Positions 102 to 63,310 of a stretch of 64,000 nt of DNA are shown one piece after another; position 1 is the stretch's first letter, and each line of letters begins with the position of its first letter. The translations under genes were made by a program, and so were the position numbers. The stretch spans positions 12,708 to 76,707 of the forward strand of contig JAGVMP010000015.1 of NCBI GenBank assembly GCA_020053735.1. The letters run 5' to 3'. The notes beneath the pieces are model-generated. The model had not been told where the DNA came from and searched no databases. It was given only the letters and a program-made list of their open reading frames with translations. This DNA is from Pseudomonadota bacterium (GTDB taxonomy: Bacteria; Pseudomonadota; Gammaproteobacteria; Burkholderiales; Methylophilaceae).

Positions 102-113
102 GCTGTTTTTTAC

Positions 114-4916: not shown

Positions 4917-4983
4917 ATTTATATTATCCAAAACTTCTTTAAATTTATCTTACTTAGTAAACCGTTACGAGCTACATCAATAC

Positions 4984-9229: not shown

Positions 9230-9258
9230 CCTTTTGATGTTGATTTAAAAAGTGCTTT

Positions 9259-21979: not shown

Positions 21980-22405
21980 ATGAAAGTTGATATGAAATAT
22001 CTCACCATATTAATTGCAGCAGCCACATTATTGACGGGTTGCGAGTACACCATTAGTGATGCTGCCACGCGCGTGCGTTATGCTTTTCAAAAAGCAGAAA
22101 TTACCAGCTTTTTTCTATCTGAAAATGACACCACCACCATCACCGTAGCGCCAGACCATTGGCCAGAAGGCTGTAAAAAAGGGGAAGGTTATCAGTTGAT
22201 ATTAATGCCTTACAAAGGCAATAAGCAAGTAGCCAGTGGCGACATTGTGGTTGATTGCTTTGGAGAAAATGGCTACCACACAGGCTTTGGCTCTAAGGAT
22301 ATTGTTATTGCGCAAGAAATGACTATAAAAAAGAAATCGGGCGAAAAAGTACAGATTACCTTGCGCAAATCACATTCTGCCCTAGAAATTATTGAATTGA
22401 AGTAA
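21980..22405 (+). CDS. Hypothetical lipoprotein (paralog 2)
   Basis: Lipobox LLTGC; 'DAATRVRY'; 3 bp after the previous gene. Confidence 0.7.
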   Translation: MKVDMKYLTILIAAATLLTGCEYTISDAATRVRYAFQKAEITSFFLSENDTTTITVAPDHWPEGCKKGEGYQLILMPYKGNKQVASGDIVVDCFGENGYHTGFGSKDIVIAQEMTIKKKSGEKVQITLRKSHSALEIIELK

Positions 22406-22423
22406 GTAAAAATGAAGAAATAT

Positions 22424-22462
22424 ATGCCCTGCGAGGCAATATCCATGAGCCTTACAGGGCAC
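22424..22462. repeat. Family A palindrome (short form)
   Basis: atgccctgcgaggcaatatccatgagccttacagggca. Confidence 0.85.
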
Positions 22463-22482
22463 ACTTTTTAAGCCAGTAGGTT

Positions 22483-22715: not shown

Positions 22716-22778
22716 AGATTGCTTTGCTTCACTCGCAATGACAAATCAAAATGGATTCCCGCTTTCGCGGGAATGACG
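22716..22778 (-). repeat. Family C tandem units
   Basis: gattgctttgcttcactcgcaatgac plus ggattcccgctttcgcgggaatgacg. Confidence 0.85.
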
Positions 22779-22788
22779 GTGCGGAAGT

Positions 22789-24477
22789 TTAAACCCCCAA
22801 CATCTCTTTGGCATGTTCACGCGTAGTGTCAGTAATTTGAATACCTCCCAACATGCGGGCAATTTCTTCCACCCGTTCGGTTTGGCTTAAGGGTTGAATA
22901 TGACTTAACGTTGCGCCATTGACTTGTGTTTTGCTGACTTGTAAATGCTGTGCAGCTTGCGCGGCGACTTGCGGTAAATGGGTAATCACTAACACTTGGC
23001 GTTCTGCACCGAGTTGTTTCAGCAGTTGCCCTACTACCTCGGCCACACCACCGCCTATGCCCACATCCACCTCATCAAAAATCATACAATCCACATTTTT
23101 ACGATTCGCGCTGCCTTGAGATGCCCCCTGGCCATCGCCAAGTGAATTCAAAGCTAAGGTAACGTGTAGCGCCAAACTGATTCTTGAGAGTTCGCCTCCA
23201 GAAGCCACTTTATTCAATGGGCGCGGCTCCACACCCGCATGCCCTGCCACTAAAAATTCTACGGTTTCTAAACCATTACTTGTCGCCTCACAAGCATTTA
23301 AGGCGACATCAAATCGTCCACCGCTTAATGAAAGGCGCTGCATTTCTGCACTGATTCTTTGGCTTAATGTTTTTGCCGCTTGCTGGCGGTTGCTGCTTAA
23401 TTGTTTAGCTGAAGCTTGATAAGTCGCATAGGCTTCTGCCTCTAGTTTAGCCAGCGCACCATCGTTTGCGAATGTTTCCAGCTGCGCCATCCGCGTTAAA
23501 TCTGCGCTTAGTAAATCAGGCAACTCTTCTGGCTTACTACGGTATTTTCGTGCTGTGTTGTGCACTGCTTGAATGCGATTCTCAACCTCGTTCAGTCGCG
23601 CTGGATCTAACTCTGCACGTTGTAAATAACGGTTTAAACTACGTGAGGCTTCTTCTAACTGGATGATGGCAGAATCCACCTCCTCTGCCGCTTCTTTCAA
23701 TTGCGCATCAAATTCTACTAAGCCAACAAGCTTAGCTTGCACTTGCGCCAACATACTAATGACTGCAGGTTCATTCTCGTCTAAAGCTGCAATACAAGCC
23801 TCTAAACCGCTTAGCAAGCTGGCGCCGTTGGCTAGTTTATGATGCTCGGCCTGCAAATCTTCCCATTCGCTAACCTCAAAATTGAGTTGTTTTAGCTCGC
23901 GCGTTTTATCGCGCAATTCTGCCAGTTCATCCGCATAAGCCGCTGCATTTTTTTCAACCTCTATGCGCTGACGATGTAAATCTACCCAAGTTTTATATTG
24001 CTTGGTGACTTGGCTTGCCAAATCAAGATGTTGTGCAAATTCATCTAAAATTTGGCGCTGTGTATTGATTTTAAGCAGCGAGTGATGCGCGTTTTGGCTA
24101 TAAATATCCACCAATAATTCGCCCAACGCGTTTAGCTGACCAATGGTGACTGCGACGCCGTTAATAAAACCGCGACTGCGGCCATCCGCATAAATAACAC
24201 GCCTGAGAACCAATATTGGTGCGGCCTCCAGGGCAGCTCCTTCAAGCCAAATAGAAGCACTTTCGTTATTTGAAAATGTAGCACTGATATCTGCGCGTTC
24301 CGCACCTGCGCGAATCACGGCACCATCGTTGCGCTCACCCAAGGCCAATGAAAGCGCATCAATCAAGATAGACTTGCCCGCGCCCGTTTCGCCAGTGAGC
24401 GTGGTAAAGCCGCCCGAAAATTCTAGGTCAAGCGTTTCGACAATAATAAAATCACGGATGGATAATGTTTGTAACAT
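22789..24477 (-). CDS. recN: DNA repair protein RecN
   Basis: Walker A 'TGETGAGKS', signature 'ASGGELSR', Walker B 'FDEVD', 'ITHLPQVAA'. Confidence 0.97.
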   Translation of the reverse strand: MLQTLSIRDFIIVETLDLEFSGGFTTLTGETGAGKSILIDALSLALGERNDGAVIRAGAERADISATFSNNESASIWLEGAALEAAPILVLRRVIYADGRSRGFINGVAVTIGQLNALGELLVDIYSQNAHHSLLKINTQRQILDEFAQHLDLASQVTKQYKTWVDLHRQRIEVEKNAAAYADELAELRDKTRELKQLNFEVSEWEDLQAEHHKLANGASLLSGLEACIAALDENEPAVISMLAQVQAKLVGLVEFDAQLKEAAEEVDSAIIQLEEASRSLNRYLQRAELDPARLNEVENRIQAVHNTARKYRSKPEELPDLLSADLTRMAQLETFANDGALAKLEAEAYATYQASAKQLSSNRQQAAKTLSQRISAEMQRLSLSGGRFDVALNACEATSNGLETVEFLVAGHAGVEPRPLNKVASGGELSRISLALHVTLALNSLGDGQGASQGSANRKNVDCMIFDEVDVGIGGGVAEVVGQLLKQLGAERQVLVITHLPQVAAQAAQHLQVSKTQVNGATLSHIQPLSQTERVEEIARMLGGIQITDTTREHAKEMLGV

Positions 24478-24501
24478 AACTAAACTTAAAATCTTTCAAT
24501 T

Positions 24502-24599
24502 CCGTCATTCCCGCGCAGGCGGGAATCCATTGTAAATGGTAACTTTTTCTGGATTCCGTGGTTCGCCATTAAAACCAATGGCTCCCGTCGGAATGACGG
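24502..24599. repeat. Family C inverted doublet
   Basis: ccgtcattcccgcgcaggcgggaatcc ... ggattccg..cggaatgacgg. Confidence 0.85.
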
Positions 24600-25786: not shown

Positions 25787-26800
25787 ATGGATAAACGCGC
25801 GCAAATCTTACTTAAAACCTTGGTAGAACATTACATTAGTGATGGTCAGCCCATTGGCTCGCGCACCCTCTTGCAGCACAGTGGCTTGGATGTAAGCCCT
25901 GCAACGATTCGGAATGTGATGAGCGATTTGGAGCACTTGGGCTTTATCGCCAGCCCGCACACATCAGCCGGACGCATCCCCACACAAAAAGGTTACCGCC
26001 TGTTTGTGGATACCTTGCTGACCGTGCAACCGCTAGAAACCAAAGCGGTAAACCAGTTAAGAAGCGGCTTAAGCTCACCCAACCAAAACGAGCTGATTAA
26101 CAGTGCAGCCGATATGCTGTCACAACTCACCCAGTTTGCTGGTTTGGTAATGATACCCAAGCGTAAAGCTTTAAGTTTCAAGCATTTAGAGTTTCTACCG
26201 CTGACCGAAAAAAGGATATTAGTCATCATCGTCACCAGTGACGGCAACGTGCAAAACCGCATCATTTTGAGTGAAAAGCCATACTCAGCCAGTGAACTCA
26301 CTCAGGCTAGCAACTATTTTAATGCCAATTTTTCTGGCCAAACCTTTGATGAGGTGCAGCAAAAACTGCATACCGAACTCAAACAAATGCAAACAGATAT
26401 GAACGTGTTGATGAACGCCGCCCTGCAGGCCAATATCCATGCGGGTGATGGCAATGGTGTTGTGATAGCGGGTGAACGTAACTTACTGAATATTGACGAA
26501 CTTTCTACCAATGTGAATAGCCTACGCAAATTGTTCGAGATTTTTGAGCGCAGAACCTCGTTGATGCAACTTTTGGACAACAGCCAGCACGCAGAAGGTA
26601 TCCAAATTTTTATCGGTGGCGAAAGTGGTTATCTTCCGTTAGATGAATGCAGCATGGTGACCGCGCCGTATGAGGCCGATGGTCAAGTCGTCGGCACACT
26701 AGGTGTAATAGGTCCGACTAGAATGGCCTATGAACGGGTGATACCGATTGTAGATGTCACAGCAAAATTACTATCAAACGCTCTGAGTTCAGGTGCTTAA
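25787..26800 (+). CDS. hrcA: Heat-inducible transcription repressor HrcA
   Basis: 'PIGSRTL', 'SPATIRNVMSDLE', 'PHTSAGRIPT', 'GVIGPTRMAY'. Confidence 0.97.
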   Translation: MDKRAQILLKTLVEHYISDGQPIGSRTLLQHSGLDVSPATIRNVMSDLEHLGFIASPHTSAGRIPTQKGYRLFVDTLLTVQPLETKAVNQLRSGLSSPNQNELINSAADMLSQLTQFAGLVMIPKRKALSFKHLEFLPLTEKRILVIIVTSDGNVQNRIILSEKPYSASELTQASNYFNANFSGQTFDEVQQKLHTELKQMQTDMNVLMNAALQANIHAGDGNGVVIAGERNLLNIDELSTNVNSLRKLFEIFERRTSLMQLLDNSQHAEGIQIFIGGESGYLPLDECSMVTAPYEADGQVVGTLGVIGPTRMAYERVIPIVDVTAKLLSNALSSGA

Positions 26801-26806
26801 GTGCTT

Positions 26807-26892
26807 ACGCCTTCACATCACGTCGTTACGCGGTACTCGTCCCCTCGACGTACTAGGTGTACAGTCTCGGGTTCTACGTTCCGTGCGCCTTG
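26807..26892 (-). repeat. Family B repeat
   Basis: Reverse complement aaggcgcacggaacg..gtac..gtac..gagg..gagtaccgcgtaacg. Confidence 0.8.
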
Positions 26893-26975
26893 TGCTGTTT
26901 TGCCTCAGCTGCTTAATCATACTGAATCAATATTTTCAAATGCATATTTTTAAAATTCATATTGCTAAGAAAGAC

Positions 26976-27084: not shown

Positions 27085-28206
27085 ATGGCGTATTACAACC
27101 CAGAACCACCCTACACCCACGGCGACCAACTGAAAGTCGGCATTTTACTGGCTAATCTTGGTACGCCAGATGCGCCCACTGCAAAGGCTTTGCGGCCGTA
27201 TCTAAAACAGTTTTTAAGTGACACTAGAGTTGTAGAAATTCCGCGTGTCATTTGGTGGTTTATTTTAAACTGCATTATTTTGGTGATTCGCCCAAAAAAA
27301 TCAGCCGCAAAATATGCGCAAGTGTGGATGCCAGACGGCTCGCCTTTGATGGTGTACGCACAGCGTCAAACAAAAATGCTGCAAGGTTTTTTAGGCCAAA
27401 AAATCAACTCGCCGTTTGCGGTGGAATTAGGTATGAGCTACGGCAACCCCAGCATGAAATCTGCCATTGAAAAATTAAAAGCACAGCACTGTGACCGCAT
27501 TTTGGTGTTACCCGTGTTTCCACAGTACGCTGCCAGCAGCACGGCTGCCGCGCTGGATGCGGTATGGAAAGTGTTGCTGAAAATGCGCAATGTGCCAGGT
27601 ATACGCACCGTGCGCGGCTATCATGACCACCCCGCCTACATCACCGCACTAGAAAAAAGTGTACTCAAGCATTGGGAAATTAATGGTAGACCTGATTTTG
27701 CCACAGGCGAAAAATTGGTGATGAGCTTTCACGGGGTGCCAAAAGTGCATTTAACCAAAGGCGACCCTTACCACTGCACTTGCCAAAAAACTGCGCGTCT
27801 ACTGGCGGAAAGTTTAGGGTTAAGTAAAGGCCAGTACTTGGTGGCGTTTCAATCACGCTTTGGCAAACAGGAATGGCTGAAGCCTTATCTGGCAAGCACT
27901 TTAGAAACGTTAGGCAAGGCTAAAACAAAACGCATTGATGTGATTTGCCCAGGTTTTAGCAGTGATTGCTTGGAAACACTGGAAGAAATTGCCATGGAAG
28001 GTAAACATATCTTTCAAAGCAATGGCGGCGGCGATTACCAATATATTCCTGCGTTGAACGACAACGACGCATGGATACACGCACTTACTCAAATTGCACT
28101 AGAAAACTTGCACGGTTGGGTGAGTAGTGATTGGAATGCGCAAACAGCTAAAATTGAAAATGCGGCAACTAAAGCCAATGCGCAAGCTTTGGGCGCTAGC
28201 CAATAA
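27085..28206 (+). CDS. hemH: Ferrochelatase
   Basis: 'NLGTPDAP', 'SFHGVP', 'FQSRFG', 'WLKPY', 'SDCLETLEEI'. Confidence 0.97.
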   Translation: MAYYNPEPPYTHGDQLKVGILLANLGTPDAPTAKALRPYLKQFLSDTRVVEIPRVIWWFILNCIILVIRPKKSAAKYAQVWMPDGSPLMVYAQRQTKMLQGFLGQKINSPFAVELGMSYGNPSMKSAIEKLKAQHCDRILVLPVFPQYAASSTAAALDAVWKVLLKMRNVPGIRTVRGYHDHPAYITALEKSVLKHWEINGRPDFATGEKLVMSFHGVPKVHLTKGDPYHCTCQKTARLLAESLGLSKGQYLVAFQSRFGKQEWLKPYLASTLETLGKAKTKRIDVICPGFSSDCLETLEEIAMEGKHIFQSNGGGDYQYIPALNDNDAWIHALTQIALENLHGWVSSDWNAQTAKIENAATKANAQALGASQ

Positions 28207-28277
28207 GCGTTATAATGCATGGCAATATTGCTTTATTCATGAGGGCTTTTATCAATGCATTATTTGGGTTGCAGTAT

Positions 28278-28358
28278 AAGGCGCACGGAACGCAGAAGCC
28301 GAGATGTACGCAGTTGTACATCGAGGCTACGAGTACCGCGTAACGCAGTAATGCGCCC
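28278..28358 (+). repeat. Family B repeat
   Basis: aaggcgcacggaacgcagaagccgagatgtacgcagttgtacatcgaggctacgagtaccgcgtaacgcag. Confidence 0.85.
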
Positions 28359-28388: not shown

Positions 28389-29390
28389 ATGATTGTGATT
28401 ACTGGCGGAGCCGGCATGATAGGTAGCATCATCGCTTGGCACCTCAACACCAAACTTGGTCGCAATGACTTGGTGATTGTTGACCACATCACGCATGAAG
28501 CGCAATGGCAAAACCTGGTGCATCGGCAATATGCTGAATATTTAGACAAAGACCAGTTATTTGACTTTTTAGAAGGTAACGATGACGTCAACGCCGTCAT
28601 CCACATGGGAGCGATTAGCGCAACCACCGAGCGCGATTTTAATAGGCTGGTTGAAGCGAATATTCATTACAGCCAAGACTTATGGGCGTGGTGCACTGAA
28701 CATCAAGTGCCGTTTTTTTTCGCCAGCTCGGCCGCCACTTATGGTGACGGTAGCTTAGGCTATGACGATGCAAGCGTTGACAAGCTACGTCCACTTAATG
28801 GCTACGGCTATTCGAAACACTTTTTTGACCAATGGGCGTTAAAACAACTGCCTGAGAACTCTCCTCCAGCGTGGGCGGGCTTCAAGTTTTTTAATGTGTA
28901 TGGCCCTAACGAATACCATAAAGAGCGCATGGCCAGCGTGGCTTTTCACACCTTCAACCAATTTAGCCAAACTGGCGCGATGAAGTTATTTAAAGGCACT
29001 GACAATATAAAAGGCTCTGGAGTAGGCGTAAAAGATGGTGAACAGCAACGTGATTTTGTTTATGTTAAAGACGCTGCATCCATCGTGGCGTATTTTTTTA
29101 GCGCAGCCTTAACGAATAAGCCTGCACCGAGTGGCATTTACAATATTGGCACAGGCAAAGCACGCAGCTTTAAAGATTTGGCGACTAATGTCATGACAAG
29201 CATGGGCAAGACACCCAACATTGAATACATTGATATGCCCTTGGATTTGCAGGGAAAGTACCAATATTATACTCAAGCGCCAATGGCAAAAATTCGTGCG
29301 GCTGGTTATAAATCCCCTATGACCAGCTTAGAAGACGGCGTTAAAGATTATGTGCAGAATTACCTGATGCAAGATGACCCTTACTGTTAA
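28389..29390 (+). CDS. hldD: ADP-L-glycero-D-manno-heptose 6-epimerase
   Basis: 'TGGAGMIGS', 'HMGAISATT', 'YGYSK', 'FFNVYGPNEYHK', 'KYQYYTQA'. Confidence 0.93.
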   Translation: MIVITGGAGMIGSIIAWHLNTKLGRNDLVIVDHITHEAQWQNLVHRQYAEYLDKDQLFDFLEGNDDVNAVIHMGAISATTERDFNRLVEANIHYSQDLWAWCTEHQVPFFFASSAATYGDGSLGYDDASVDKLRPLNGYGYSKHFFDQWALKQLPENSPPAWAGFKFFNVYGPNEYHKERMASVAFHTFNQFSQTGAMKLFKGTDNIKGSGVGVKDGEQQRDFVYVKDAASIVAYFFSAALTNKPAPSGIYNIGTGKARSFKDLATNVMTSMGKTPNIEYIDMPLDLQGKYQYYTQAPMAKIRAAGYKSPMTSLEDGVKDYVQNYLMQDDPYC

Positions 29391-29430: not shown

Positions 29431-29523
29431 AAGGCGTACAGCTTTTAAATTGAAGGTCTGCAGAAGCCGAAACAGTATGTTTTATACGGTGAGGTTGCGA
29501 GCACCGCGCAACGCTGTAATGCG
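29431..29523 (+). repeat. Family B repeat
   Basis: aaggcg..gcagaagccga..gtat gtttt atac..gaggttgcgagcaccgcgcaacgctg. Confidence 0.75.
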
Positions 29524-30136: not shown

Positions 30137-30216
30137 CATCTGCATCGTTACGCGGTGCTCGCAAGCTCCCTGTACAACCCCGTACTATCTCGCTTTCTGT
30201 GCTCCGTGCGCCTTGC
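30137..30216 (-). repeat. Family B repeat
   Basis: Reverse complement aaggcgcacggagcacag..gtac..gtac..gcgagcaccgcgtaacg. Confidence 0.8.
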
Positions 30217-30255
30217 ATATAGGCCGCTCGCAACGGTTTTATAAAGTATTCATTT

Positions 30256-31725
30256 ATGCCACAAACGCTAATTAATACCGTCAAACAATTTGGTAGCAAA
30301 ACTTTAGGCTCTGCCAAACAACACGCACTCGTCATTGGCGATGTGATGTTAGACCGCTATTTAATGGGTGAAGTTGGTCGCATTTCGCCTGAAGCACCGG
30401 TGCCTGTGGTGCTGATTAAAAGTGAAGAGGTACGCGCTGGTGGTGCATCCAATGTGGCTGCCAACTTGGCACTTTTAGGGATTAGTACACGCTTGGTGGG
30501 CTGTGTTGGGGTAGATGCCGAAGCAAATACTTTAAGCAATCTCATCAAGGCCAGCGGTGTTAAGGCCAATTTAATTGCCAGCAAAGTACGCCCCACCATC
30601 GCTAAAACGCGTATTTTAGGCGGCCATCAACAAATGTTGCGGCTAGATCAAGAAGACAGTGCAAGTTTTTCTGAGTTAGAAACCATCAGCTTATTACAAG
30701 TGCTTAAAGTAGAGCTGGCTGAAAAGCCGAGTGTGGTGGTCTTGTCCGATTACGCCAAAGGCTTGCTCAACGAAACGATTTGTCAGCAAATAATCAGCCA
30801 ATGCCAATCACACAAAATTCCTGTTTTAGTGGATCCAAAAGGTACAGACTACAGTAAATATAAAGGGGCAACCGCACTTACCCCCAATAAGAAAGAAGCT
30901 GCAGAGGCCTGCCATACCAACAGCCAAGACACGGACTTAATCAGCAAAGTCACAGCACTAAAAACCAAACTAGATTTGAGCTTTATGGCGGTCACCCGTG
31001 GTGAAGAAGGCATTAGCCTCATTGAAAAAGCTGCACACCACATACCTGCCACTGCACAAAAAGTGTTTGATGTTTCTGGTGCGGGCGACACGGTGATTGC
31101 AACGCTAGCTGCTGGGTTAATGCATGATTTAACACCAATACAAAGCTTGGAGTTGGCCAATATTGCCGCTGGCGTGGTGGTAGGCAAAGTAGGCACTGTG
31201 CCGATTACGCGCGCTGACTTACTAGAAGCGCTCACCGCCAAACAAGGGAATGAGCAAGCACATAAAATTTGCGATTTAGCTGAATTAAATTCAAAAGTGA
31301 ACGCTTGGAAGCAAGCCAAGCAAAAAATCGTGTTTACCAATGGCTGCTTTGATTTGCTGCATGCTGGCCATGTGACATATCTTGAAGCTGCAAAAAAACG
31401 CGGTGATAAATTGATACTTGGCTTAAATACTGATCGATCAGTCAGCGCGATAAAAGGCCCTAGCAGACCAGTGGTACATGAGAATGACCGCGCGCGCGTG
31501 CTGGCCGCGCTTGAAAGTGTGGATGCCGTGATTTTGTTTGACGAAGATACGCCGCTCAAATTGATTAAAGCACTCAAGCCAGACATCATCGCCAAAGGTA
31601 GCGATTACACTGCAAGCCAAGTGGTTGGTGGCAAAGAGGTGCAAAGCTGGGGTGGCGAAATTGCGCTAATTGAATTGGTAGAAGGCCGAAGCACCAGCAA
31701 TATTATTCGTAAACTGAATACGTAA
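30256..31725 (+). CDS. hldE: Bifunctional heptose-7-P kinase / heptose-1-P adenylyltransferase
   Basis: 'GRISPEAPVPV', 'DVSGAGDTV', 'NGCFDLLHAGH', 'STSNII'. Confidence 0.96.
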   Translation: MPQTLINTVKQFGSKTLGSAKQHALVIGDVMLDRYLMGEVGRISPEAPVPVVLIKSEEVRAGGASNVAANLALLGISTRLVGCVGVDAEANTLSNLIKASGVKANLIASKVRPTIAKTRILGGHQQMLRLDQEDSASFSELETISLLQVLKVELAEKPSVVVLSDYAKGLLNETICQQIISQCQSHKIPVLVDPKGTDYSKYKGATALTPNKKEAAEACHTNSQDTDLISKVTALKTKLDLSFMAVTRGEEGISLIEKAAHHIPATAQKVFDVSGAGDTVIATLAAGLMHDLTPIQSLELANIAAGVVVGKVGTVPITRADLLEALTAKQGNEQAHKICDLAELNSKVNAWKQAKQKIVFTNGCFDLLHAGHVTYLEAAKKRGDKLILGLNTDRSVSAIKGPSRPVVHENDRARVLAALESVDAVILFDEDTPLKLIKALKPDIIAKGSDYTASQVVGGKEVQSWGGEIALIELVEGRSTSNIIRKLNT

Positions 31726-32750
31726 TGGCTGACAAAATTCTAGTCCTTGGTCCAGCGTGGGTAGGCGATATGGTACTGGCACAAAGCCTATTTAAAACGC
31801 TCAAACTCAACCGACCTGATTGCATTATTGACGTTGCTGCTCCCGCGTGGACATTGCCTTTACTAGAGCGTATGCCAGAAGTTTCTGGCAAGATTGCTCT
31901 GCCATTTAAACATGGCGAACTGGCTTTTTGGCAGCGCATTCAATTTGGCAAAAGCTTAAAAAATGCAGGTTACAGTCAAGCAATCATTCTCACCAACTCG
32001 TTTAAATCAGCTTTGCTGCCTTGGGCGGCCAGCATAGCAAAACGCACCAGCTTTTTAGGTGAAATGCGCTACGGTTTAATTAACGATATCCGCCCACTTG
32101 ATAAAACCAAGCTCAAAAAAACGGTAGAACGGTTTGTGACACTAGGTTTAGATAAAGATGTATCTTTGCCAAAAACCATTCCAAACCCATACTTAAACAG
32201 TGCCCCAGAAGCCGCATGGATATTGGCTTACAGGCTAGGTGTTTTGGATAATAAGAGTAAAGTGCTGGGCATTTGCCCAGGTGCAGAGTACGGTGAGGCC
32301 AAACGCTGGCCAGCCGAATACTATGCCGAAGTAGCCAATGATGCACTCAAAAAGGGTTGGCAAGTGTTATTGTTTGGGTCAGATAAAGACATGCCAGTAA
32401 CCACTCAAATCAACCAGCTTACGCAAAATAAATGTGTTGATTTAGGTGGCAAAACTAAACTGGGCGAAGCGATAGATTTGATGTCGATTTGCGATACCGT
32501 GATTAGCAACGACTCTGGTTTGATGCATGTGGCCGCCGCGCTAAGTAATGAAACTAGCGCAAAAAAACTCATCGCCATATTTGGCAGCAGCGACCCTTAC
32601 CACACGCCACCTATGCAGCCAGATGCAGTGATAGAATATTTAGGCTTAAGTTGCAGCCCTTGCTTTAAGCGTGAGTGCCCGCTTAAAGATGAGGCGCATT
32701 TAGCTTGCTTAAAAAATATCACGCCGCAGTTGATTGCCACTAAAATTTAG
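31725..32750 (+). CDS. waaF: LPS heptosyltransferase II
   Basis: 'PAWVGDMV', 'PGAEYGEAKRWP', 'NDSGLMHVAAA'. Confidence 0.94.
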   Translation: MADKILVLGPAWVGDMVLAQSLFKTLKLNRPDCIIDVAAPAWTLPLLERMPEVSGKIALPFKHGELAFWQRIQFGKSLKNAGYSQAIILTNSFKSALLPWAASIAKRTSFLGEMRYGLINDIRPLDKTKLKKTVERFVTLGLDKDVSLPKTIPNPYLNSAPEAAWILAYRLGVLDNKSKVLGICPGAEYGEAKRWPAEYYAEVANDALKKGWQVLLFGSDKDMPVTTQINQLTQNKCVDLGGKTKLGEAIDLMSICDTVISNDSGLMHVAAALSNETSAKKLIAIFGSSDPYHTPPMQPDAVIEYLGLSCSPCFKRECPLKDEAHLACLKNITPQLIATKI

Positions 32751-36379: not shown

Positions 36380-37078
36380 CTAGAGCATTCTGTTTTGAAT
36401 ATCTTTCAATCTTATATCCGCTTTTCTACAATTTGCTTGGTAGCCATCAACCAGTGCTTGAATCTCTCTATAGCCAAAAACAAATTTAATTTCAAGATCT
36501 CGCCAAAATCGTGAAAAGTTTTTTAATCTTCTTCGGCTATCTAATGACCAAGGAAATATTGTCATATCAGCAATATCAATCAAACCCATTCTTTTTTCAG
36601 ATGTCAGTACGATATTACCAAGATGCAGGCCTCTGAAATAAATTCCCTTTTCGTGTACCTCTGCTATAAAAGCGCCTAAGTCTTTAGATAGTGCAATACT
36701 AATGTTTCTTGAGCGCAAAATATCAAGGATGGTATCCCCATACAATGGCTCGTAAACTACCGCTGTTTTATTAGAATTTTGTATATGATACAGCTGCTTA
36801 ACTTTAACAGTAGGAATCCCTAACTTAGCAATACGTTCTGCGTTTCTACAAAACATTCTTGCGTAAGAGTATACATGCGCGATACTAAACAGGCGTTTAA
36901 CACGAAAGATTTTGATGAAATCACCATTGGCAAGTTTTGCAACTTTGATGCCATACTGATCTTGCTCAAAGATAGCCTCTGCATTCGCAAGCCAGCGATT
37001 TAACTCCACCTGAGTCAGCAACTCACTTTTTTGGTATGAATACCCGAAAGTACATGCAACTTGCATTGTGACAATCAT
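36380..37078 (-). CDS. LPS kinase-like protein (Kdo/WaaP family; 'toluene tolerance'-type)
   Basis: 'FIKIFR', 'HEKGIYFRGLHLGNI', 'LIDIAD' kinase-fold motifs. Confidence 0.7.
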   Translation of the reverse strand: MIVTMQVACTFGYSYQKSELLTQVELNRWLANAEAIFEQDQYGIKVAKLANGDFIKIFRVKRLFSIAHVYSYARMFCRNAERIAKLGIPTVKVKQLYHIQNSNKTAVVYEPLYGDTILDILRSRNISIALSKDLGAFIAEVHEKGIYFRGLHLGNIVLTSEKRMGLIDIADMTIFPWSLDSRRRLKNFSRFWRDLEIKFVFGYREIQALVDGYQANCRKADIRLKDIQNRML

Positions 37079-37098: not shown

Positions 37099-38112
37099 TT
37101 ATAGCTTATAGTATTTTTTATACCAAATCGAAAATTTTTCTATCCCAGTTTTCAAGTCTGTGTTTGGTTTAAACCCTACCCACGCCTCTAGTGCGCTAGT
37201 GTCGGCATAAGTCGCTTTTACATCCCCTGCTTGTATGGGTAAAAATTCTTTTTGCGCTTTTCTGTCCAACGCATCCTCTAAAAAACCGATAAAATCGAGT
37301 AGTTTTTCAGGATGATTATTCCCAATATTGAACAGTCTGTAAGGCGCATGGATATTGCCTCCCAGAGCATCGATTTGAGGCATTATAAGTTTGGCTGGTG
37401 GTTTATGTAGCACACGAATGACAGCTTCGACAATGTCGTCGATATAAGTAAAATCGCGCATCATATCGCCATAATTAAACACTTTAATTGGCTTATTGTT
37501 GAGAATAGCATCTGCAAATAAAAATGGCGCCATATCTGGCCTGCCCCATGGCCCATACACAGTAAAGAAGCGTAATCCAGTCGTTGGGATACCATACAGA
37601 TGGCTGTAGGTATGTGCCATCAATTCATTGGCTTTTTTCGTTGCTGCATACAAACTCACGGGGTGATCGACATTATCTGTCTCAGAAAATGGCAATTTAG
37701 TATTGCCGCCGTATACGCTAGATGAGCTTGCATACACCAAATGTTGCGGTTTAATCGCGCGGCACGCCTCTAGCACATTGGTAAACGCAACGATGTTGCT
37801 GCTGATATATGCATGTGGATTTTCGAGCGAGTAACGCACCCCCGCTTGCGCCGCGAGATGAATGACGCTATCTGGATTTTCACCTACAAATAATCGAGCT
37901 GTTGCAAGCTGCTCAGCTAAATCAAGCTTAACAAATTTAAAGTTTTTGGCATTTGGGTGCGCTTGAATGGTTTCAAGTCGCGCTTCTTTTAAACTTAGGT
38001 CGTAATAATCATTCATATTATCGACTCCAACCACGACGTCACCACGTGTCAACAACTGAAGCGCTGTATGAAACCCAATAAATCCTGCTACCCCTGTTAA
38101 TAATACTTTCAT
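37099..38112 (-). CDS. UDP-glucuronate 4-epimerase
   Basis: 'TGVAGFIG', '[11 protein letters not shown]', 'YAATKKANE', '[10 protein letters not shown]'; follows ugd. Confidence 0.88.
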
Positions 38113-38118
38113 TGCAAT

Positions 38119-39447
38119 TTATTTGGTCAAGCGCCCGATTGCGTGGTATTCAATACCAGCATTTTTTACTACGGCAGGATCATAAATATTACGGCCATCA
38201 AAAATAATATTTGATTTAAGCTTCCTTTTTATCTGACTAAAGTCTTGGCTTCTAAATTCCTTCCACTCAGTCACAATCACCAAGGCATCTGCATTATCCA
38301 AAGCTTGGCTTGGGCTTTCAGCATAACTTAACCCTTTTATACCATTCAATATGCGCTTGGTTTCTTGCATGGCAACTGGGTCGTAAGCCGTTACCGTAGC
38401 CCCTGCTGCCAGCAGATCAGCAATTAGCACACGACTAGAAGCCTCACGCATATCGTCCGTATTAGGTTTAAATGCCAAACCCCATACTGCAAAATGTTTA
38501 TCAGCCAAGTTTTCACCAAAATATTTTTTAATTTTTTTGGTTAATACTTGTTTTTGAGCATCATTGGCCGCTTCAACCGCATTCAGCACTTTTAAATCAT
38601 AAGCATTATTTTTACCTGTGCTAATCAGCGCTTTCACATCCTTAGGAAAACAGGATCCACCATAACCACAACCTGGGTACAAAAAGTCATAACCAATGCG
38701 CGGATCAGAGCCTATACCTTTGCGTACAGATTCAATATCTGCGCCTAAGAGTTCAGCCAAATTAGCAAGTTCATTCATAAAGCTAATGCGTGTCGCCAAC
38801 ATTGCATTAGCGGCATATTTAGTAAGTTCTGCGGAACGCAAATCCATCATAACTAAACGCTCGTGATTGCGCTGAAATGGCGCATAAAGCGTGCGCATTA
38901 CTTTTATACTTTGCTCATCTTCAGCGCCAATAATAATGCGATCTGGACGCATAAAATCTTCTACTGCTGCACCTTCTTTTAAAAATTCTGGGTTGGACAC
39001 CACACTAAAATCTATTGTCTTACTGCGCGCTAGAAGTTCTTCCGCAATCGCTTCTTTTACTTTATCCGCAGTGCCTACTGGCACAGTAGATTTATCTACC
39101 ACCACTTTATAACCAGTCATGTACTTGCCAATATTTCTTGCTGCGGCAACCACATACTGCAAGTCAGCAGAGCCGTCTTCATCAGGTGGCGTTCCAACTG
39201 CAATAAATTGCACATCGCCAAACGCAACCGATTGCTCAATATTTGTCGTAAATTTTAGTCGTCCAGCGGCTACATTACGGCGCACCATCTCGAGCAAACC
39301 AGGCTCATGAATAGGAATGCCACCATTTTCCAAAATTTTAATCTTTGCAGGGTCAACATCCAAGCAAAGTACATGATTGCCTACTTCAGCCAAGCAAGCA
39401 CCTGACACTAAGCCAACATAGCCTGTCCCGATTATAGCCACTTTCAT
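38119..39447 (-). CDS. ugd: UDP-glucose 6-dehydrogenase
   Basis: 'GTGYVGL', 'SNPEFLKEG', '[10 protein letters not shown]', '[10 protein letters not shown]'. Confidence 0.95.
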
Positions 39448-42672: not shown

Positions 42673-42709
42673 TGCTAAATCTCAATCAATAAATGCGAGA
42701 AAAAATATC

Positions 42710-42746
42710 TGCTCTGCAAGCCAATATCCATGAGGCTTGCAGAGCA
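42710..42746. repeat. Family A palindrome (short form)
   Basis: Perfect 13-bp arms tgctctgcaagcc/ggcttgcagagca around aatatccatga. Confidence 0.9.
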
Positions 42747-42787
42747 TCAAAATGATGTTATATAAAAATCACGTTGCGTAAACAAAA

Positions 42788-42810
42788 AAAGGCTGTTATT
42801 AACAGCCTTT
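42788..42810 (-). terminator. Terminator after eda
   Basis: aaaggctgtt/aacagccttt IR with A-run (minus-strand U-tail). Confidence 0.75.
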
Positions 42811-42830: not shown

Positions 42831-43457
42831 TTACGCTGGCTGAATGGCGCTCGCTTGTTTAGCCAATTTAGTAATATGCGCCCAATCTTTACGTGCCACT
42901 GCATCGGCTGGGGTCAGCCAAGTTCCACCACACACTACCACGTTGGGCAACGCCAGAAACTGTGGCGCACTTTCAACTGTGACGCCACCAGTGGGGCAAA
43001 ATTTCACATCACCAAATGGCCCTGCGAAACCTTTTAATAAGTTAATGCCACCAACTGCTACAGCTGGGAACAATTTTAAGAAGAAGTAATCATCTGCATT
43101 TGCAGTCATAATCTCACTGCCTGTTGAAACACCAGGCAACAAACTTAAGCCAATCTTGCGAGAAAATAAGCCAAGCTCACTTGTATAGCCTGGGCTTACC
43201 GCAAATTTGCAACCTACATCGAGTGAGTTTTGTGCATCTTTTAAATTGCGTACCGTGCCGCTGCCCATAATCGCATCTGGCACGTGCTTGGCAATTTGCT
43301 CCATGGCTTGTAGCGCGCAGCTTGAGCGCAGGGTGACTTCTAACACACGAATACCGCCCTCAAGCAGTGCTTCTGCCATCGGCACAGCATCTTCTACTTT
43401 GTTGATGACGATAACGGGAATGACAGGGCCCTGCTTAGCTAAATCTAATGTGTTCAT
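42831..43457 (-). CDS. eda: KDPG aldolase
   Basis: 'LEVTLR', 'GSGTV', 'KLFPA', 'FCPTGGV'. Confidence 0.96.
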   Translation of the reverse strand: MNTLDLAKQGPVIPVIVINKVEDAVPMAEALLEGGIRVLEVTLRSSCALQAMEQIAKHVPDAIMGSGTVRNLKDAQNSLDVGCKFAVSPGYTSELGLFSRKIGLSLLPGVSTGSEIMTANADDYFFLKLFPAVAVGGINLLKGFAGPFGDVKFCPTGGVTVESAPQFLALPNVVVCGGTWLTPADAVARKDWAHITKLAKQASAIQPA

Positions 43458-43514
43458 GTTTAAGTTTTTACCTAAATTAAATAGTTGGAATAATAATGAT
43501 ATTTAAATTTAAAT

Positions 43515-43542
43515 TGGATTCCCGCCTGCGCGGGAATGACGG
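43515..43542 (-). repeat. Family C single unit
   Basis: tggattcccgcctgcgcgggaatgacgg. Confidence 0.85.
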
Positions 43543-43559
43543 AATGAGAAATACTTGAA

Positions 43560-47394: not shown

Positions 47395-48927
47395 TCATTC
47401 ACTCATCTCTTTATTAGCATAGATCCCCGCTTTAATTAAAATTGCGGGGTCGGGATAAATCACTTTAAATGTTTTCACGAACGCATTATACAGGGCTGGC
47501 TCATTCTGCCAATTTTGCATAAAACGATGCAAATCTTTTAAATGCGCAACACTGCTGGTGAAATGAGTGCGGTGTTGGCGCATGCTATCTAAATCTATCA
47601 GCAATGGCTGCGCACCTTGCATTTTGATGTTGGTGGCTTTCATATCGCCATGCGAAATATGCAGCAGATAAAGTTTGTAAAAAAGCGTTGCAATATTTTT
47701 TACTGCCTCAGCGCGCTGGGATTTATTTTGTGTTTGAGCAAAATATTGGGCAACATCGGGTGCATCAGTATATTCTGCTAAAAAATAAGCTTTGCCTCTA
47801 AACACTCCCAAACTACGATGCTCGATGAGCGCAATTGGCTTTGCTGTTGCAATCTTCAATATTTTAAGCCGATGTGCATTCGCCCATGACGCCGCAGCAC
47901 GGCTTTGACGAAAGGCGCGACTGATGCCATGCCAAAAGTTTTTGATGTTATAGCGCTTAATGACTATCTTTTTATCATCCATTTCTACAAGCGCGACTGT
48001 GCAAGTGTTGCTATTTTTAAGTAGATTCTGAGTACCAATTAACGCATCTAAATCCTCAGTAAAGTCGGTATTTTCCGCATCGCTGGAAGCCAATATCCAT
48101 GCGCCTTTCATGCATGAATAACCAGCTTTAGCTGGTATATTCTGCGGGGACGACCCCTGCGGTTGCAGAGCATACTTTTTCACATCTGTGCACTGCCGAA
48201 AAACTTTTTTATCTGCATAGGCAGATGCTGCCTTGATACGATGTCGCTCAGATAAACGGCTGATATCTGAAGCTACAAGCTCAACACTAGGGTTCGCCAT
48301 GTGATATTGCATTAAAAGTTTAGGCATCCATGCTAAAACCTCGAGCACATCAAATTTGGACAAAAGAACGGCAAAATTTGATGAAGCTTGTTGGTAAGAA
48401 ATAACATCGTATTGGCGAATACCATCGCCATCAATGCTATAAAGTTGCTGACCATCAAACAAAAAGTTTTTAAGATATAAATCTGTTTGCATTAAACGCG
48501 CATGGTGATGCTGACCAAGCGTCTGAGCAAGCATAGAGGCCAACTCTAATCGTTGTGACGCATTACGCTGCACCCATACTGATTCGACATTCTGACTATG
48601 AGGGATAGCTTCAAATATCAATATTTCTGTATCATCAAGCGTGTCAATAAGCAATAATTTTGAAGTGGCGATACTTGCGGCAATGAGTGCGTCCACACCT
48701 TGTTTATCTCTTTGTGCATAGCGCTTAGCGCCATTGCCAATAAACAACTTAGCATACACCGCCTGCCCTTTCCAAACACCTCGGCACACCAAACGCTTAT
48801 TGGCTACTCGACGTACCACTTGCTCCACTATAAGCGCGTCACCATTACTTAGCCAAAGCGAAAATGTTTGATTCTCATCATTTGATAACGCAGACAAATT
48901 GTTTAGCAAAGCGAATTGATCTGCCAT
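47395..48927 (-). CDS. Two-domain LPS kinase (Kdo/WaaP family)
   Basis: Two kinase-like halves ('QTDLYLKNFL..IDGD' and 'HGDMKATNI..IDLD'); start MADQ overlaps upstream stop (TAATG). Confidence 0.8.
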   Translation of the reverse strand: MADQFALLNNLSALSNDENQTFSLWLSNGDALIVEQVVRRVANKRLVCRGVWKGQAVYAKLFIGNGAKRYAQRDKQGVDALIAASIATSKLLLIDTLDDTEILIFEAIPHSQNVESVWVQRNASQRLELASMLAQTLGQHHHARLMQTDLYLKNFLFDGQQLYSIDGDGIRQYDVISYQQASSNFAVLLSKFDVLEVLAWMPKLLMQYHMANPSVELVASDISRLSERHRIKAASAYADKKVFRQCTDVKKYALQPQGSSPQNIPAKAGYSCMKGAWILASSDAENTDFTEDLDALIGTQNLLKNSNTCTVALVEMDDKKIVIKRYNIKNFWHGISRAFRQSRAAASWANAHRLKILKIATAKPIALIEHRSLGVFRGKAYFLAEYTDAPDVAQYFAQTQNKSQRAEAVKNIATLFYKLYLLHISHGDMKATNIKMQGAQPLLIDLDSMRQHRTHFTSSVAHLKDLHRFMQNWQNEPALYNAFVKTFKVIYPDPAILIKAGIYANKEMSE

Positions 48928-50471
48928 TACTTGGATACTATCTTCCATAATGCCCAGCGGCCAATTTGCTTTTCCTGCATCACAACTCCATTTTCTAGTA
49001 CGGGCTTATCTTTGCTCAATAGCCATAATGTTTTATTTACCACCAATAACTGTTCTAGCTGCTTCCCACCCAAAGGCTGGATGGGGCGATTAGCATAAAA
49101 TGACACTGCCCCATCTCCAGGCTTGGCTTGATATAAAGGCTTAGCTTGATAGAGCGCTTGAGACGAAGTTGAATCAATAGCAACTGATTGCACTAGCTGC
49201 TTAATGTCGTCTTTTTCTGTGTCTTTAGTGATGTACTGCTCCGCAAATAAATAAATAAACGTTGCAAATACTGCCGCTAATAAAACAGGTGTCTGAGGAG
49301 CGGGAATATTCAACTCACGTTTTAACAACCAAGGACCAAGCAATAATAAGGGCCAAATCAGAACGGTTGGCAAGCTCAACACATGCGTCAAGCCTTGCTT
49401 ACGTATTCCGACCACAAACAACGCAATCACAGCAATCGCTAATAAGCAAAAAATGACGCGGTTAAATTGATAAAACCTGCCTTGCGCCACTTGTAAATAA
49501 TAGCCGATAAGAATCGCAATCGATGGTAAAAAAAGTAAGGCATATTGCGTTTGTTTGTTAACAGTAAACGTGAGCAACACGAATACGACTAGCAACCAAA
49601 TAATAGAGAAATGCACAACCTTAGGTAACGGTCGATGTTGATACAACCATATACCCGCAGGGACCAACAGCAAACTCCATGGTGCAAAAAACTCTACAGC
49701 ATGCGCTAAATACCAGTAAATCGGCTGCTGATGTGTGCCAGATACAAACGTTTCATCTACCTGACGCGATACAAATTGTTGCGCCACATCTGGCATACTG
49801 ATTAAAATCCATGCATACCATGCAAATGCGCTGACTAAAAAAATCATTATCCCAGTTGGGTTAATGATTGCTTTAACCGTGTGCAATTGTTTAGTCGCAA
49901 ACGCGTAACCCAACACAGTCATTAATGGAATGGCAATGCCCGCAGGGCCTTTTGTCAAAAAACCAAGCCCTAATGCCAGCATGAACAAATAAACTGTTTT
50001 TTTGTTTGGTGACTCAAAAAGCTTGAACCCAGCAAAGCAAGCTAGAGAGACAAAAAACAATAACGTAGCATCCGCCTCAGCACTTCTAAAATAGCGCATC
50101 CCTAAGAAGCTTGTACACATCACCAACACAGCATTCGCTGCGGCTTGAATATTTAAGGTATCTTTTAACCAAATAAACAACAAGCAAGCTGAAAGTAATG
50201 CAAACAAAAGAGAAGGCACGCGTGCTGCCGCCTCACTCACACCAAATAATTTATAGCTAAGCGCAGTCGTCCAATAGGTCAACGGCGGTTTTTGTAAGCG
50301 TAGCTCGCCATTATAGTGTGGCACCACCCAATCATTACGCACCACCATTTCACGTGCGGTCTCAGCTATTCGAGCCTCTTGTATTTTATCAATAGCGCGA
50401 CCCGCTGAGCCAAACAACAAACCAATCAATATAACACTTAACAATCCGACGCTAATTTTCAGCATATACAC
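48927..50471 (-). CDS. Second ArnT-like GT-C glycosyltransferase
   Basis: 'QEARIAETAREM', 'KPPLTYW', 'ARVPS', 'LTKGP'. Confidence 0.85.
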   Translation of the reverse strand: MYMLKISVGLLSVILIGLLFGSAGRAIDKIQEARIAETAREMVVRNDWVVPHYNGELRLQKPPLTYWTTALSYKLFGVSEAAARVPSLLFALLSACLLFIWLKDTLNIQAAANAVLVMCTSFLGMRYFRSAEADATLLFFVSLACFAGFKLFESPNKKTVYLFMLALGLGFLTKGPAGIAIPLMTVLGYAFATKQLHTVKAIINPTGIMIFLVSAFAWYAWILISMPDVAQQFVSRQVDETFVSGTHQQPIYWYLAHAVEFFAPWSLLLVPAGIWLYQHRPLPKVVHFSIIWLLVVFVLLTFTVNKQTQYALLFLPSIAILIGYYLQVAQGRFYQFNRVIFCLLAIAVIALFVVGIRKQGLTHVLSLPTVLIWPLLLLGPWLLKRELNIPAPQTPVLLAAVFATFIYLFAEQYITKDTEKDDIKQLVQSVAIDSTSSQALYQAKPLYQAKPGDGAVSFYANRPIQPLGGKQLEQLLVVNKTLWLLSKDKPVLENGVVMQEKQIGRWALWKIVSK

Positions 50472-54577: not shown

Positions 54578-54593
54578 CTACGCCTTAATTTGT

Positions 54594-54689
54594 ATGCCCT
54601 GCAGAGCTCATGAATATTGGGTTTCACGCATGAATAACCAGCTTTAGCTGGTATATTCTGCGGGGACAACCCCTGCGGTTGCAGGGCAT
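54594..54689. repeat. Family A long form (96 bp)
   Basis: TIR atgccctgca/tgcagggcat; internal hairpins accagct/agctggt and gggg/cccc. Confidence 0.9.
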
Positions 54690-54741
54690 CATTTTATTCT
54701 CGACGCTATTTAAGCAGCTACAAACAAAATGCAAACCAGCT

Positions 54742-60249: not shown

Positions 60250-60366
60250 TGGATTCTTCACTACACTCAGAATGACAATTCAAAATGGATTCCCGCTTTC
60301 GCACCACAGGCACTCCGATTTACTAAGTGCTTAAGCACTTAGTAAAGTCGTATGCGGGAATGGCGG
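60250..60366 (-). repeat. Family C tandem units, second with an internal insertion
   Basis: ggattc..gaatgac plus ggattcccgctttcgc-[51 bp]-gcgggaatggcgg. Confidence 0.8.
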
Positions 60367-61709: not shown

Positions 61710-61762
61710 ATTTTGCTGAAATAAATTGATAGGAAGCGATTTATAATACATGATTCACAAGG

Positions 61763-61848
61763 CATGCTCTGCGGACTAATACCCCAGGGCACCCTCTCTC
61801 AAACTCACTTCATGAGTTTGACTCACCTTGTATCCATGAGGGTTTCGC
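61763..61848. repeat. Family A copy interrupted by an insertion
   Basis: catgctctgcggactaata..[insert with aaactca/tgagttt hairpin]..tatccatgagggtttc. Confidence 0.6.
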
Positions 61849-62574: not shown

Positions 62575-62677
62575 ATGCCCTACAAGGCAATATCCATGCG
62601 GGTTTCAGAGCATATATTTTGGCGTATGAATAATGTGCATTTGCACATATATTCTACGGACAAGACCCTTGCGGTCT
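62575..62677. repeat. Family A long-form variant
   Basis: atgccctacaaggcaatatccatgcgggtttcagagcat plus module 2 with atgtgca/tgcacat stem. Confidence 0.85.
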
Positions 62678-63235: not shown

Positions 63236-63310
63236 AAGGCGCAAGGCGCGCAGAAACCGGAATGTATGGGGTATACATGAGGATTGCGAGCACCGCGTAA
63301 CGTAGCAATT
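63236..63310 (+). repeat. Family B repeat
   Basis: aaggcgc x2..ggaatgtat..atacatgaggattgcgagcaccgcgtaacg. Confidence 0.8.

Follow-up and report, generated by a model that had tools for sequence, protein, structure and literature searches.

A short hairpin repeat probably overwrote a variable loop of a predicted UDP-glucuronate 4-epimerase in a Methylotenera-like bacterium

Nearly the same 34 nucleotides (nt) occur within a gene predicted to encode a UDP-glucuronate 4-epimerase and in an intergenic spacer of a 64,000-nt stretch of DNA from a Methylophilaceae bacterium (contig JAGVMP010000015.1 of assembly GCA_020053735.1, positions 12,708 to 76,707, hereafter the window), which raises the question of whether part of the enzyme was derived from a dispersed repeat and, if so, by which route. 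The segment of the gene, whose reverse complement at 37337-37370 reads ATGCTCTGGGAGGCAATATCCATGCGCCTTACAG, is identical at 31 of 34 positions to ATGCCCTGCGAGGCAATATCCATGAGCCTTACAG at 22424-22457 of the plus strand. The original prediction had taken both for copies of one repeat, Family A, differing by three mismatches, and had regarded the coding copy as a replacement within a variable loop rather than a net insertion. Both the match and the family membership are borne out by our analysis, and we consider it very likely that the segment is a genuine translated copy of a hairpin family of the Methylotenera lineage, resembling repetitive extragenic palindromes (REPs), which overwrote an older loop, the route of acquisition being the part of this scenario that we infer.

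The host of the copy is an intact open reading frame (ORF) of 337 amino acids (37099-38112, minus strand) that belongs to the extended short-chain dehydrogenases/reductases and contains the Pfam Epimerase/GDP_Man_Dehyd domains, and its close homologues bear the JGI name UDP-glucuronate 4-epimerase. The nearest solved structure is that of Klebsiella 5U4Q (E-value 2e-132), and the characterised UGAepi of B. cereus (6ZL6) matches with an E-value of 1e-45. The sequence shares the Rossmann signature G7-x-x-G10-x-x-G13 and the catalytic Y155-AAT-K159, and a UDP-glucose 6-dehydrogenase gene (ugd; 38119-39447, minus strand) lies directly upstream. By full-length match, domains, motifs and linkage to ugd, the product is a UDP-glucuronate 4-epimerase, its activity being predicted from sequence. 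The 120 closest proteins listed, whose identities span 63-100% and are nearly all within 75-92%, keep the region around the copy in frame; the few with a source name are labelled Methylotenera.

Family A is a REP-like hairpin of about 39 nt, in which a stem of 13 bp encloses an 11-nt loop that hardly varies, with the aligned consensus AAAnAnCTGCCCTGCAAGCC-AATATCCATGC-GGCTTnCAGGGCATnnATTTT. The copy in the epimerase gene, its parts and its closest intergenic relative are located as follows:

37333-37369, minus strand: Family A copy in the epimerase gene, 54 bits with the covariance model, residues 248-260 (D248-L260)
37357-37369, minus strand: left arm of this copy, TGCTCTGGGAGGC
37346-37356, minus strand: loop, AATATCCATGC
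37333-37345, minus strand: right arm, GCCTTACAGACTG
22418-22469, plus strand: closest intergenic copy, between convergent genes, a strong hairpin (-20.2 kcal/mol, z -4.8; 60 bits)

A fuzzy search of the window with up to 3 mismatches returned 37337 and 22424 as sole matches, against an expectation of 0.00 from 100 dinucleotide-preserving shuffles. The final 11 nt of the match, GCGCCTTACAG, correspond to the APYR codons and are ancestral coding sequence, so that the independent match is limited to the first 23 nt, 21 of which are identical; by our own estimate, about 4e-6 matches of this quality are expected by chance in 128 kb. The limits of the repeat were placed at 37325-37376 by the covariance model and at 37333-37377 by seed-and-extend repeat finding, and they were delimited independently by contigs of an unrelated metagenome, which stack (depth 48-70) solely on 37338-37377 while their flanks are unrelated. 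Epimerase copies from orthologues outside the training set of the model score 42-48 bits (E-values of about 1e-10 to 1e-12), in agreement with membership of the family. The window copy has the exact loop core AATATCCATG and is read as GCC-CTG-CAA-GCC-AAT-ATC-CAT-GCG, giving A-L-Q-A-N-I-H-A. Its hairpin is weak (-11.2 kcal/mol, z -1.0), with about 9 of the 13 pairs left, one of them G-T, and no longer forms a stable 13-bp stem; the copy reads as a decayed family member.

The history of the loop was traced in homologous proteins and their genes. In 80 homologues from other genera, the loop that precedes YRLFNIGN is of the form ...D..(A/P)DPATSNAPYRVFNIGN, i.e. of the DPATSNAPYR type, as the original prediction had given it (DPATS.APY), and none has NIH at this place. 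That prediction had named NIHAPY in distant homologues as the observation that would speak against it; no homologue outside the Methylotenera clade has NIH there. Among the 120 closest proteins, the majority read (D)AL[QEG][AGT]NIHAP[YC]R and a minority, 325-332 amino acids long, TPSTSTGAPYR, TPSANTGAPYR or AALNTSAPYR; element-bearing loops are confined to orthologues of the Methylotenera clade (78-92% identity). Read in one frame, the family consensus GCC CTG CAA GCC AAT ATC CAT GCG GCT TGC AGG gives ALQANIHAACR, which means that the common peptide of the orthologues is the element itself. The DNA of 12 orthologues agrees with the family consensus, with peptides such as ALEANIHAPCR and ALQANIHEPYR; for example, P0112 has CCTGCTCTAGAAGCCAATATCCATGCGCCTTGCAGGCTA and P0012 CCTGCGCTGCAAGCCAATATCCATGAGCCTTACAGGCTG, and in the element-free P0117 CCAAGCACTAGCACTGGT stands where the left arm and loop would be. 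By exact scan, the junction between gene and element was found in Methylotenera/Methylophilaceae assemblies only. Methylopumilus, an outgroup within the family Methylophilaceae, has a short element-free loop, KPATPEAGGNVPYR, indicating that the element-bearing state is derived; some Methylotenera orthologues have such a loop too. The outgroup DNA for N-A-P-Y-R (AAT GCG CCT TAC CGN) resembles the CC ATG CGG CTT GCA GG of the element, so the right arm coincides with ancestral conserved codons. The original prediction is thereby refined: APY(R) was not brought by the element, being ancestral and overlapping the right arm.

Loop lengths point in the same direction. The loop has 19 residues in the window versus about 20 in other Betaproteobacteria, and the nearest element-free Methylophilaceae orthologues (KPATPSTSTGAPYR) lack only 2-5 codons compared with the simplest orthologues that have the element, KPATPALEANIHAPCR and KPATPE(K/I/M)DAL..NIHAP(Y/C)R. 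Between KPAT and APYR there are 6 codons in element-free Methylotenera, 8 in the simplest element-bearing orthologues and about 11 in the DAL class. Counted from K to R, the window loop is longer (23 residues versus 14 in element-free relatives) because of extra residues upstream of the element. A further trace concerns the conserved aromatic residue, which is Cys (APCR, where TGC is the family consensus, CTTGCAG) in about 27 of the 120 orthologues and is encoded by TAC in the window. All Cys-bearing orthologues are clearly element-bearing except P0071, whose loop looks element-like and decayed. The presence of the consensus Cys in these orthologues suggests that the element sequence overwrote a conserved codon in many lineages. 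The view that the epimerase copy represents a replacement, and not a net insertion, is thus supported. The copy is old, common to orthologues down to about 80% identity, and not a recent acquisition of the window genome. Within the gene, no DNA-level constraint on the loop core was detected: 2 of 8 orthologues have AAC, a synonymous change, for AAT, and the core is not better conserved than the adjoining conserved codons.

To place the copy in the protein, the epimerase was modelled by AlphaFold2 with 39 homologues, at moderate confidence (mean pLDDT, i.e. predicted local distance difference test score, of 70.8). The model has a coil at residues 236-257, with pLDDT below 50 at 242-254, between a helix (223-235) and a strand (258-263). 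The B. cereus structure 6ZL6 is devoid of this loop, which implies that it is dispensable for the fold, and Klebsiella 5U4Q has a different one. The copy is therefore placed by the model in a predicted disordered surface loop that is variable or absent in solved homologues.

The loop has also received secondary insertions, which it shares with the repeat family: the 57-nt and 51-nt modules are found in epimerase orthologues at the same positions as in window copies. In the epimerase of P0074, a 57-nt module lies between CTGCAA and CCCAATATCC, almost base for base as in the composite at 54580-54705 (minus strand) of the window, where the module also occurs at 9186-9217 and 48131-48162. The epimerases of P0006 and P0115 contain a 51-nt module that splits the loop as AATA^TCCATG, with a TA repeat at both ends; the same composite is intergenic at 61762-61845, and this module, by its TA flanks, looks like a miniature inverted-repeat transposable element (MITE). 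A third type of insertion, a 27-nt hairpin (CACTGGACTCAAGCATTCCAGTG) that encodes TGLKHSSAG, is found in the left arm in the epimerase orthologues P0035, P0040, P0044, P0051 and P0079 (L203 2240-2270).

We then considered the family as a whole. Fourteen clear copies were obtained by seed-and-extend repeat finding and a fuzzy loop search, and a covariance model was built on their alignment; it regains all 14 and adds 24192-24243 (25 bits), 5368-5419 (19 bits) and 4734-4792 (14.5 bits). The census of the 64 kb thus comprises 14 clear copies, 2-3 weaker ones and one interrupted by a module, i.e. at least 16 overall. The loop core, C-AATAT-C-CA-T-G, is invariant or almost so, and the arms vary more. 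The exact 10-mer core occurs 12 times in the window, in both orientations, versus about 0.1 expected (our own estimate from the length of the 10-mer); exact cores are always accompanied by at least one family arm, and isolated cores are not enriched. RNAalifold predicted no structure from the 14 copies, because coding copies break pairs, and pairs were therefore counted on an explicit stem/loop structure: 74% of stem cells pair, versus 34-46% when the 3' partner is slid. Changes on both sides, some of them compensatory, affect 8 of the 13 stem pairs, and at one central position of the stem (columns 15/37) most copies have a mismatch. The folding energies of intergenic copies range from -18 to -25 kcal/mol (z -2.5 to -6.7), and these copies lie within about 30-150 nt of the 3' end of a gene. 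The one at 22424 lies 19 nt past the stop of the ORF at 21980-22405 (plus strand), ahead of recN (22789-24477, minus strand). An Rfam scan of the window, repeat copies included, reached the gathering score of no family, and a terminator scan did not flag Family A, whose 11-nt loop is above the limit of the scanner. The other intergenic copies are:

57-108, minus strand: Family A, 61.6 bits
2552-2603, plus strand: Family A between convergent 3' ends, 50 bits
9067-9118, plus strand: Family A with a 74-nt D2 module close by, at 9161-9234
42703-42754, plus strand: Family A with a perfect 13-bp stem (-24.6 kcal/mol, z -6.7), 63 bits
45587-45638, minus strand: Family A 3' of a carbamoyltransferase gene, 59.9 bits
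54580-54705, minus strand: composite of Family A with a 57-nt D2 module in the left arm, an arrangement shared with epimerase orthologue P0074
60373-60424, plus strand: Family A (-18.3 kcal/mol, z -2.5), 57 bits
61762-61845, plus strand: Family A with its loop split AATA^TCCATG by the TA-flanked 51-nt module, a composite also found in epimerase orthologue P0006
62569-62620, plus strand: Family A followed by a diverged D2-like module at 62618-62691, 55 bits

We also asked if Family A is simply a transcription terminator. A canonical intrinsic terminator, AAAGGCTGTTAATAACAGCCTTT followed by TTTTG, is present at 42788-42810 (minus strand), between the stop of the ORF at 42831-43457 (minus strand) and the copy at 42703-42754. 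Family A is thus not the terminator at that site, and it cannot simply be equated with a terminator.

The bacterium belongs to the Methylophilaceae and resembles Methylotenera (its HrcA shares 88% identity with the M. versatilis protein; nearest assembly a Methylophilaceae metagenome-assembled genome at about 90%; GC content 44%), and public sequencing runs contain related strains only, with at most 39% of words. A scan of species-representative genomes, a set from which the genome of the window is absent, for an exact 17-nt core of the family returned mostly Methylotenera/Methylophilaceae assemblies, other matches being scattered at a chance-like level. The model has 85 matches, both strands of palindromic copies being counted, in 49 loci, of which 42 had been taken from the scan for the family's own 17-nt core, and up to 4 copies are found per 8 kb. 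A literature search for palindromic repeats in Methylotenera found nothing.

The epimerase gene is not the only coding host. Four to six further ORFs of the window contain copies, clear in WaaF, HrcA, BamE and a Kdo-kinase-like protein and weaker in RecN and FolP:

32193-32244, minus strand (reverse orientation): copy in WaaF (heptosyltransferase II, GT9; 31725-32750, plus strand), 54 bits, peptide SAPEAAWILAYRLG
26412-26463, plus strand: left arm and loop in hrcA (25787-26800, plus strand), 43 bits, peptide AALQANIHAGDG
18070-18121, minus strand: copy in the Ala/Pro-rich tail of the BamE ORF (17520-18602, minus strand), 45.5 bits, peptide DAPEANIQAPAGD
48072-48185, plus strand: composite of Family A and D2 in a Kdo/WaaP-kinase-like ORF (47395-48948, minus strand), 48 bits, the minus-strand frame giving KKYALQPQGSSPQNIPAKAGYSCMKGAWILASSDA
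24192-24243, plus strand: weaker, Family A-like sequence in recN, 25 bits (E-value 1e-5), peptide AALEAAPILVLRR
5368-5419, minus strand: weak, probably decayed copy in folP (5091-5912, minus strand), 19 bits (E-value 0.0014), peptide RLQASIHAGCGE, in the same frame as the other forward copies

In other Methylophilaceae genomes, copies were found in a DNA methyltransferase-like ORF (PALQANIHAAVEA), an acyltransferase (AALQANIHAVY) and a lipoprotein (APEANTSAVAG), and one copy is in another frame. Forward copies are read as ALQANIHA in 7 of 8 cases and reverse copies as AAWILA in 3 of 3, and in both orientations the arms are read GCC-CTG-CAA-GCC; if the first copy is taken to set the frame, our own binomial estimate of the chance of such a bias is below 1e-3. 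The consensus is stop-free in all six frames, the two unused forward frames giving Pro/Cys/Gly-rich peptides. None of the 12 coding copies tested folds better than shuffled sequence. Nearly all WaaF orthologues of at least 79% identity have PEAAWILA[S/C/Y]R, S, C and Y corresponding to the arm variants TCC, TGC and TAC, and the WaaF of L204, which is free of the element (SKKNNALESLKRLGLT), does not differ in length.

Several of these host proteins have further peculiarities. In many WaaF orthologues, the repeat-derived PEAAWILASRLGV is directly followed by variable insertions, Lys/Asn-rich and 4-12 residues long (alignment columns 197-212); a second variable insertion (SNETSA and similar) lies ahead of KKLIAIFGSS (columns 309-316). 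The HrcA homologues P0131, P0148, P0225 and P0177 start with an N-terminal extension of about 35 residues (MKYKADGAQK...), probably a mis-called start that reads through an upstream repeat or leader. The BamE protein (360 amino acids) has its domain at residues 32-99; the Family A copy lies in the tail behind it, some 260 residues long and rich in Ala, Pro, Glu and Val. The Kdo-kinase-like ORF (517 amino acids) has a Kdo/WaaP-kinase domain in its C-terminal part only (residues 312-492) and a kinase-like N-terminal half, the two being joined by the in-frame composite (residues 257-291), and it could represent a repeat-mediated fusion of two adjacent kinase genes.

How could the epimerase have acquired its copy? 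In the scenario that we favour, this would have happened once or a few times in an ancestor, through a templated replacement, either ectopic gene conversion or annealing of an element copy, and not through cut-and-paste insertion. The event may have been seeded by prior similarity, since the ancestral AATGCGCCTTAC resembles the CCATGCGGCTTGC of the element. Selection would then have retained only copies of a tolerated length in the single frame whose Ala/Leu-rich residues do no harm, and would have let or made the hairpin decay, leaving the coding copy as a tolerated passenger with no function of its own. The copy may still be exchanging sequence with the family, which would explain both the alternation of Tyr and Cys at residue 258 and how the 57-nt and 51-nt modules arrived. 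It is tempting to extend this idea to the whole family, which would be the visible product of templated overwriting (short-patch ectopic conversion or single-stranded hairpin annealing), possibly with recognition at the conserved loop; we regard this generalisation as speculative and rather unlikely.

Four other explanations have to be weighed. A mobile hairpin, similar to a REP moved by a REP-associated tyrosine transposase (RAYT) or to a MITE, could have transposed into the loop, as the Rickettsia palindromic elements (RPEs) do, with later deletions restoring the length. We consider this possible, if doubtful. It would account for the whole hairpins with co-varying arms that are found in ORFs (CCAG/CTGG in BamE, both arms in WaaF), for the DAL-class orthologues, about 5 codons longer than element-free ones, and for the true insertions of 27-57 nt in the epimerase loop, one of which, the 51-nt module, has TA-repeat flanks. 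However, Family A copies have no target-site duplication and no transposase was seen in the window; the WaaF copy swaps 11-12 codons, codon for codon, and RecN shows no length change relative to E. coli RecN; and under random insertion the position of the right arm on the ancestral APYR codons would be a coincidence. Less probable still is an uptake-signal-like or protein-binding motif under molecular drive, which would accumulate in place by point mutation and a biased process, as do uptake signal sequences (USS) and DNA uptake sequences (DUS). Same-length coding copies, one frame per orientation and location at variable positions are USS/DUS patterns (PMC2817400), no part of the element is as conserved as the loop core, graded intermediates exist in the epimerase and HrcA, and prior similarity is seen at APYR and AALEA. 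Yet exact cores in the window never occur in the absence of an arm and are not enriched in isolation, each intergenic copy is one hairpin whose loop contains the core, in contrast to the pairs formed by USS/DUS, and the density of about 1 per 4 kb is below that of known uptake sequences. Moreover, point mutation can produce neither the stretches of 27-30 nt that match perfectly in unrelated genes (L087, L133) nor composites with the 51-57-nt modules.

The remaining two explanations have little to recommend them. A hairpin functional within the gene, acting on mRNA or DNA through pausing, attenuation before the downstream gene or mRNA stabilisation, might be suggested by the intergenic hairpins, maintained by compensatory changes and located at gene ends, and by the conservation of the loop core in the coding copies of orthologues. 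It is made very improbable by the folding of the epimerase copy and of all the coding copies tested, no better than shuffles, by the synonymous AAT to AAC changes in the core, and by the negative result of the Rfam scan of the window. As for a chance or convergent resemblance arising from codon choice in the loop, the ancestral origin of the last 11 nt of the match goes some way towards it. It becomes practically negligible when the shuffles expect no match, the non-ancestral 23 nt agree at 21 positions, orthologue copies outside the training set reach 42-48 bits, and orthologues carry the composite modules of the family.

Some observations weigh against an overwriting of the loop by a family copy. 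The intermediates ALQANTSAPYR, as in P0046, where the left arm is kept and the loop has diverged, and ANTGAPYR may have arisen by decay, by recombination or as stages of a gradual build-up. AAL(E/Q)A is present in all HrcA orthologues and NIH only in some, and thus some of the copies, as in HrcA, may have grown in place. As stated above, part of the 34-nt match is ancestral coding sequence. The proposed polarity draws on outgroups and not on a rooted tree, and nearly all comparison sequences are metagenome assemblies. Neither a target-site duplication nor a transposase was found, nor a very close relative with a truly empty site, so that the acquisition event itself escapes observation. Finally, N-I-H is well conserved among element-bearing orthologues and could have a new structural role, so that the status of passenger is our reading of the data.

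Comparison with known repeats helps to situate Family A. REP, bacterial interspersed mosaic elements (BIME) and Neisseria intergenic mosaic elements (NIME), known from E. coli, Pseudomonas and Neisseria, are short imperfect palindromes present in high copy number just after genes, with compensatory stems and mosaic arrangements, and REPs are extragenic by definition. Family A resembles them as a multi-copy, short, imperfect palindrome at gene ends with compensatory stem changes, forming mosaics with the 57-nt D2 and 51-nt modules. It differs in that its most conserved part is the loop and not the stem or a 5' GTAG, a motif absent from its consensus, and in that about 6 of the 17 copies in the window are coding, hence not extragenic.

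RPEs are about 100-150 bp long and add about 30-50 residues to proteins (Ogata et al. 2000, summarised in PMC10969869). In both cases palindromic repeats are intergenic as well as in frame within unrelated housekeeping genes, where they are translated (PMC10969869), tolerated in surface or variable regions and retained across species while decaying. In contrast to RPEs, Family A measures about 39 nt, changes length by 0 to +5 codons and overwrites existing codons, its sequence appears unrelated to theirs, its host is a free-living methylotroph and not an intracellular bacterium with a reduced genome, and one of its host loops received several different modules in different lineages. Family A is thus not an RPE member; it resembles an RPE-like colonisation of coding DNA by a short, replacement-type element. 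Intragenic ERICs (enterobacterial repetitive intergenic consensus elements) and other small mobile sequences or MITEs also occur occasionally in frame within ORFs (PMC10969869); compared with MITEs, Family A is far shorter and has neither terminal inverted repeats nor a target duplication in the MITE sense. USS/DUS are found in coding regions at poorly conserved residues, in preferred frames and with no indels (Findlay and Redfield 2009, PMC2817400). Family A shares with them over-representation, both orientations and coding copies with a frame bias, and differs by its unit, a whole hairpin of about 39 nt with arms, by its module composites and by its lower density.

Other features of the window deserve mention. 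Directly 3' of the epimerase gene, a 232-amino-acid ORF (36380-37078, minus strand) has no Pfam match; in the species-representative genomes it has a single relative, 91% identical and in the same gene order. Judging by the sequence (...GLHLGNIVL...DIAD...), the ORF may encode a small lipopolysaccharide-kinase-like protein. A second dispersed repeat, the small palindrome ...GGATTCCCGC(N4-6)GCGGGAATGACGG, is present near gene ends at 22743-22779, 24499-24540, 43506-43545 and 60277-60313, two of its copies flanking recN, and is reminiscent of the neisserial dRS3/RS-type ATTCCC..GGGAAT repeats. A third family, with the motifs CGAGTACCGCGTAACG and AAGGCGCACGG, occurs at 4954-5042, 26816-26897, 28272-28353, 29475-29520, 30141-30244 and 63264-63309; it is found in both orientations around the genes at 27-30 kb, where inverted pairs bracket the ORFs at 27085-28206 and 28389-29390.

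The in-frame colonisation of housekeeping genes by palindromic repeats has been regarded as peculiar to Rickettsia and a few others. Here we report the same phenomenon in methylotrophs that live freely in fresh water. Their element is much shorter, overwrites existing codons and imposes its own consensus Cys on a conserved aromatic residue, and a single enzyme loop has repeatedly been the landing site of three different modules. When Methylophilaceae proteins are annotated or aligned, pipelines should allow for peptides that stem from the repeat, such as ALQANIHA and EAAWILA. Public Methylotenera assemblies constitute a natural series of element-free, filled, decayed and nested states in which the route of entry (insertion, conversion or drive) and the tolerance of proteins can be tested. 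Templated overwriting, if true, would mean that partially similar DNA, coding loops included, is replaced codon for codon and that the loop core serves as a landing pad for modules; it would be a way, not described before, in which dispersed repeats reshape the loops of proteins in free-living bacteria with large populations.

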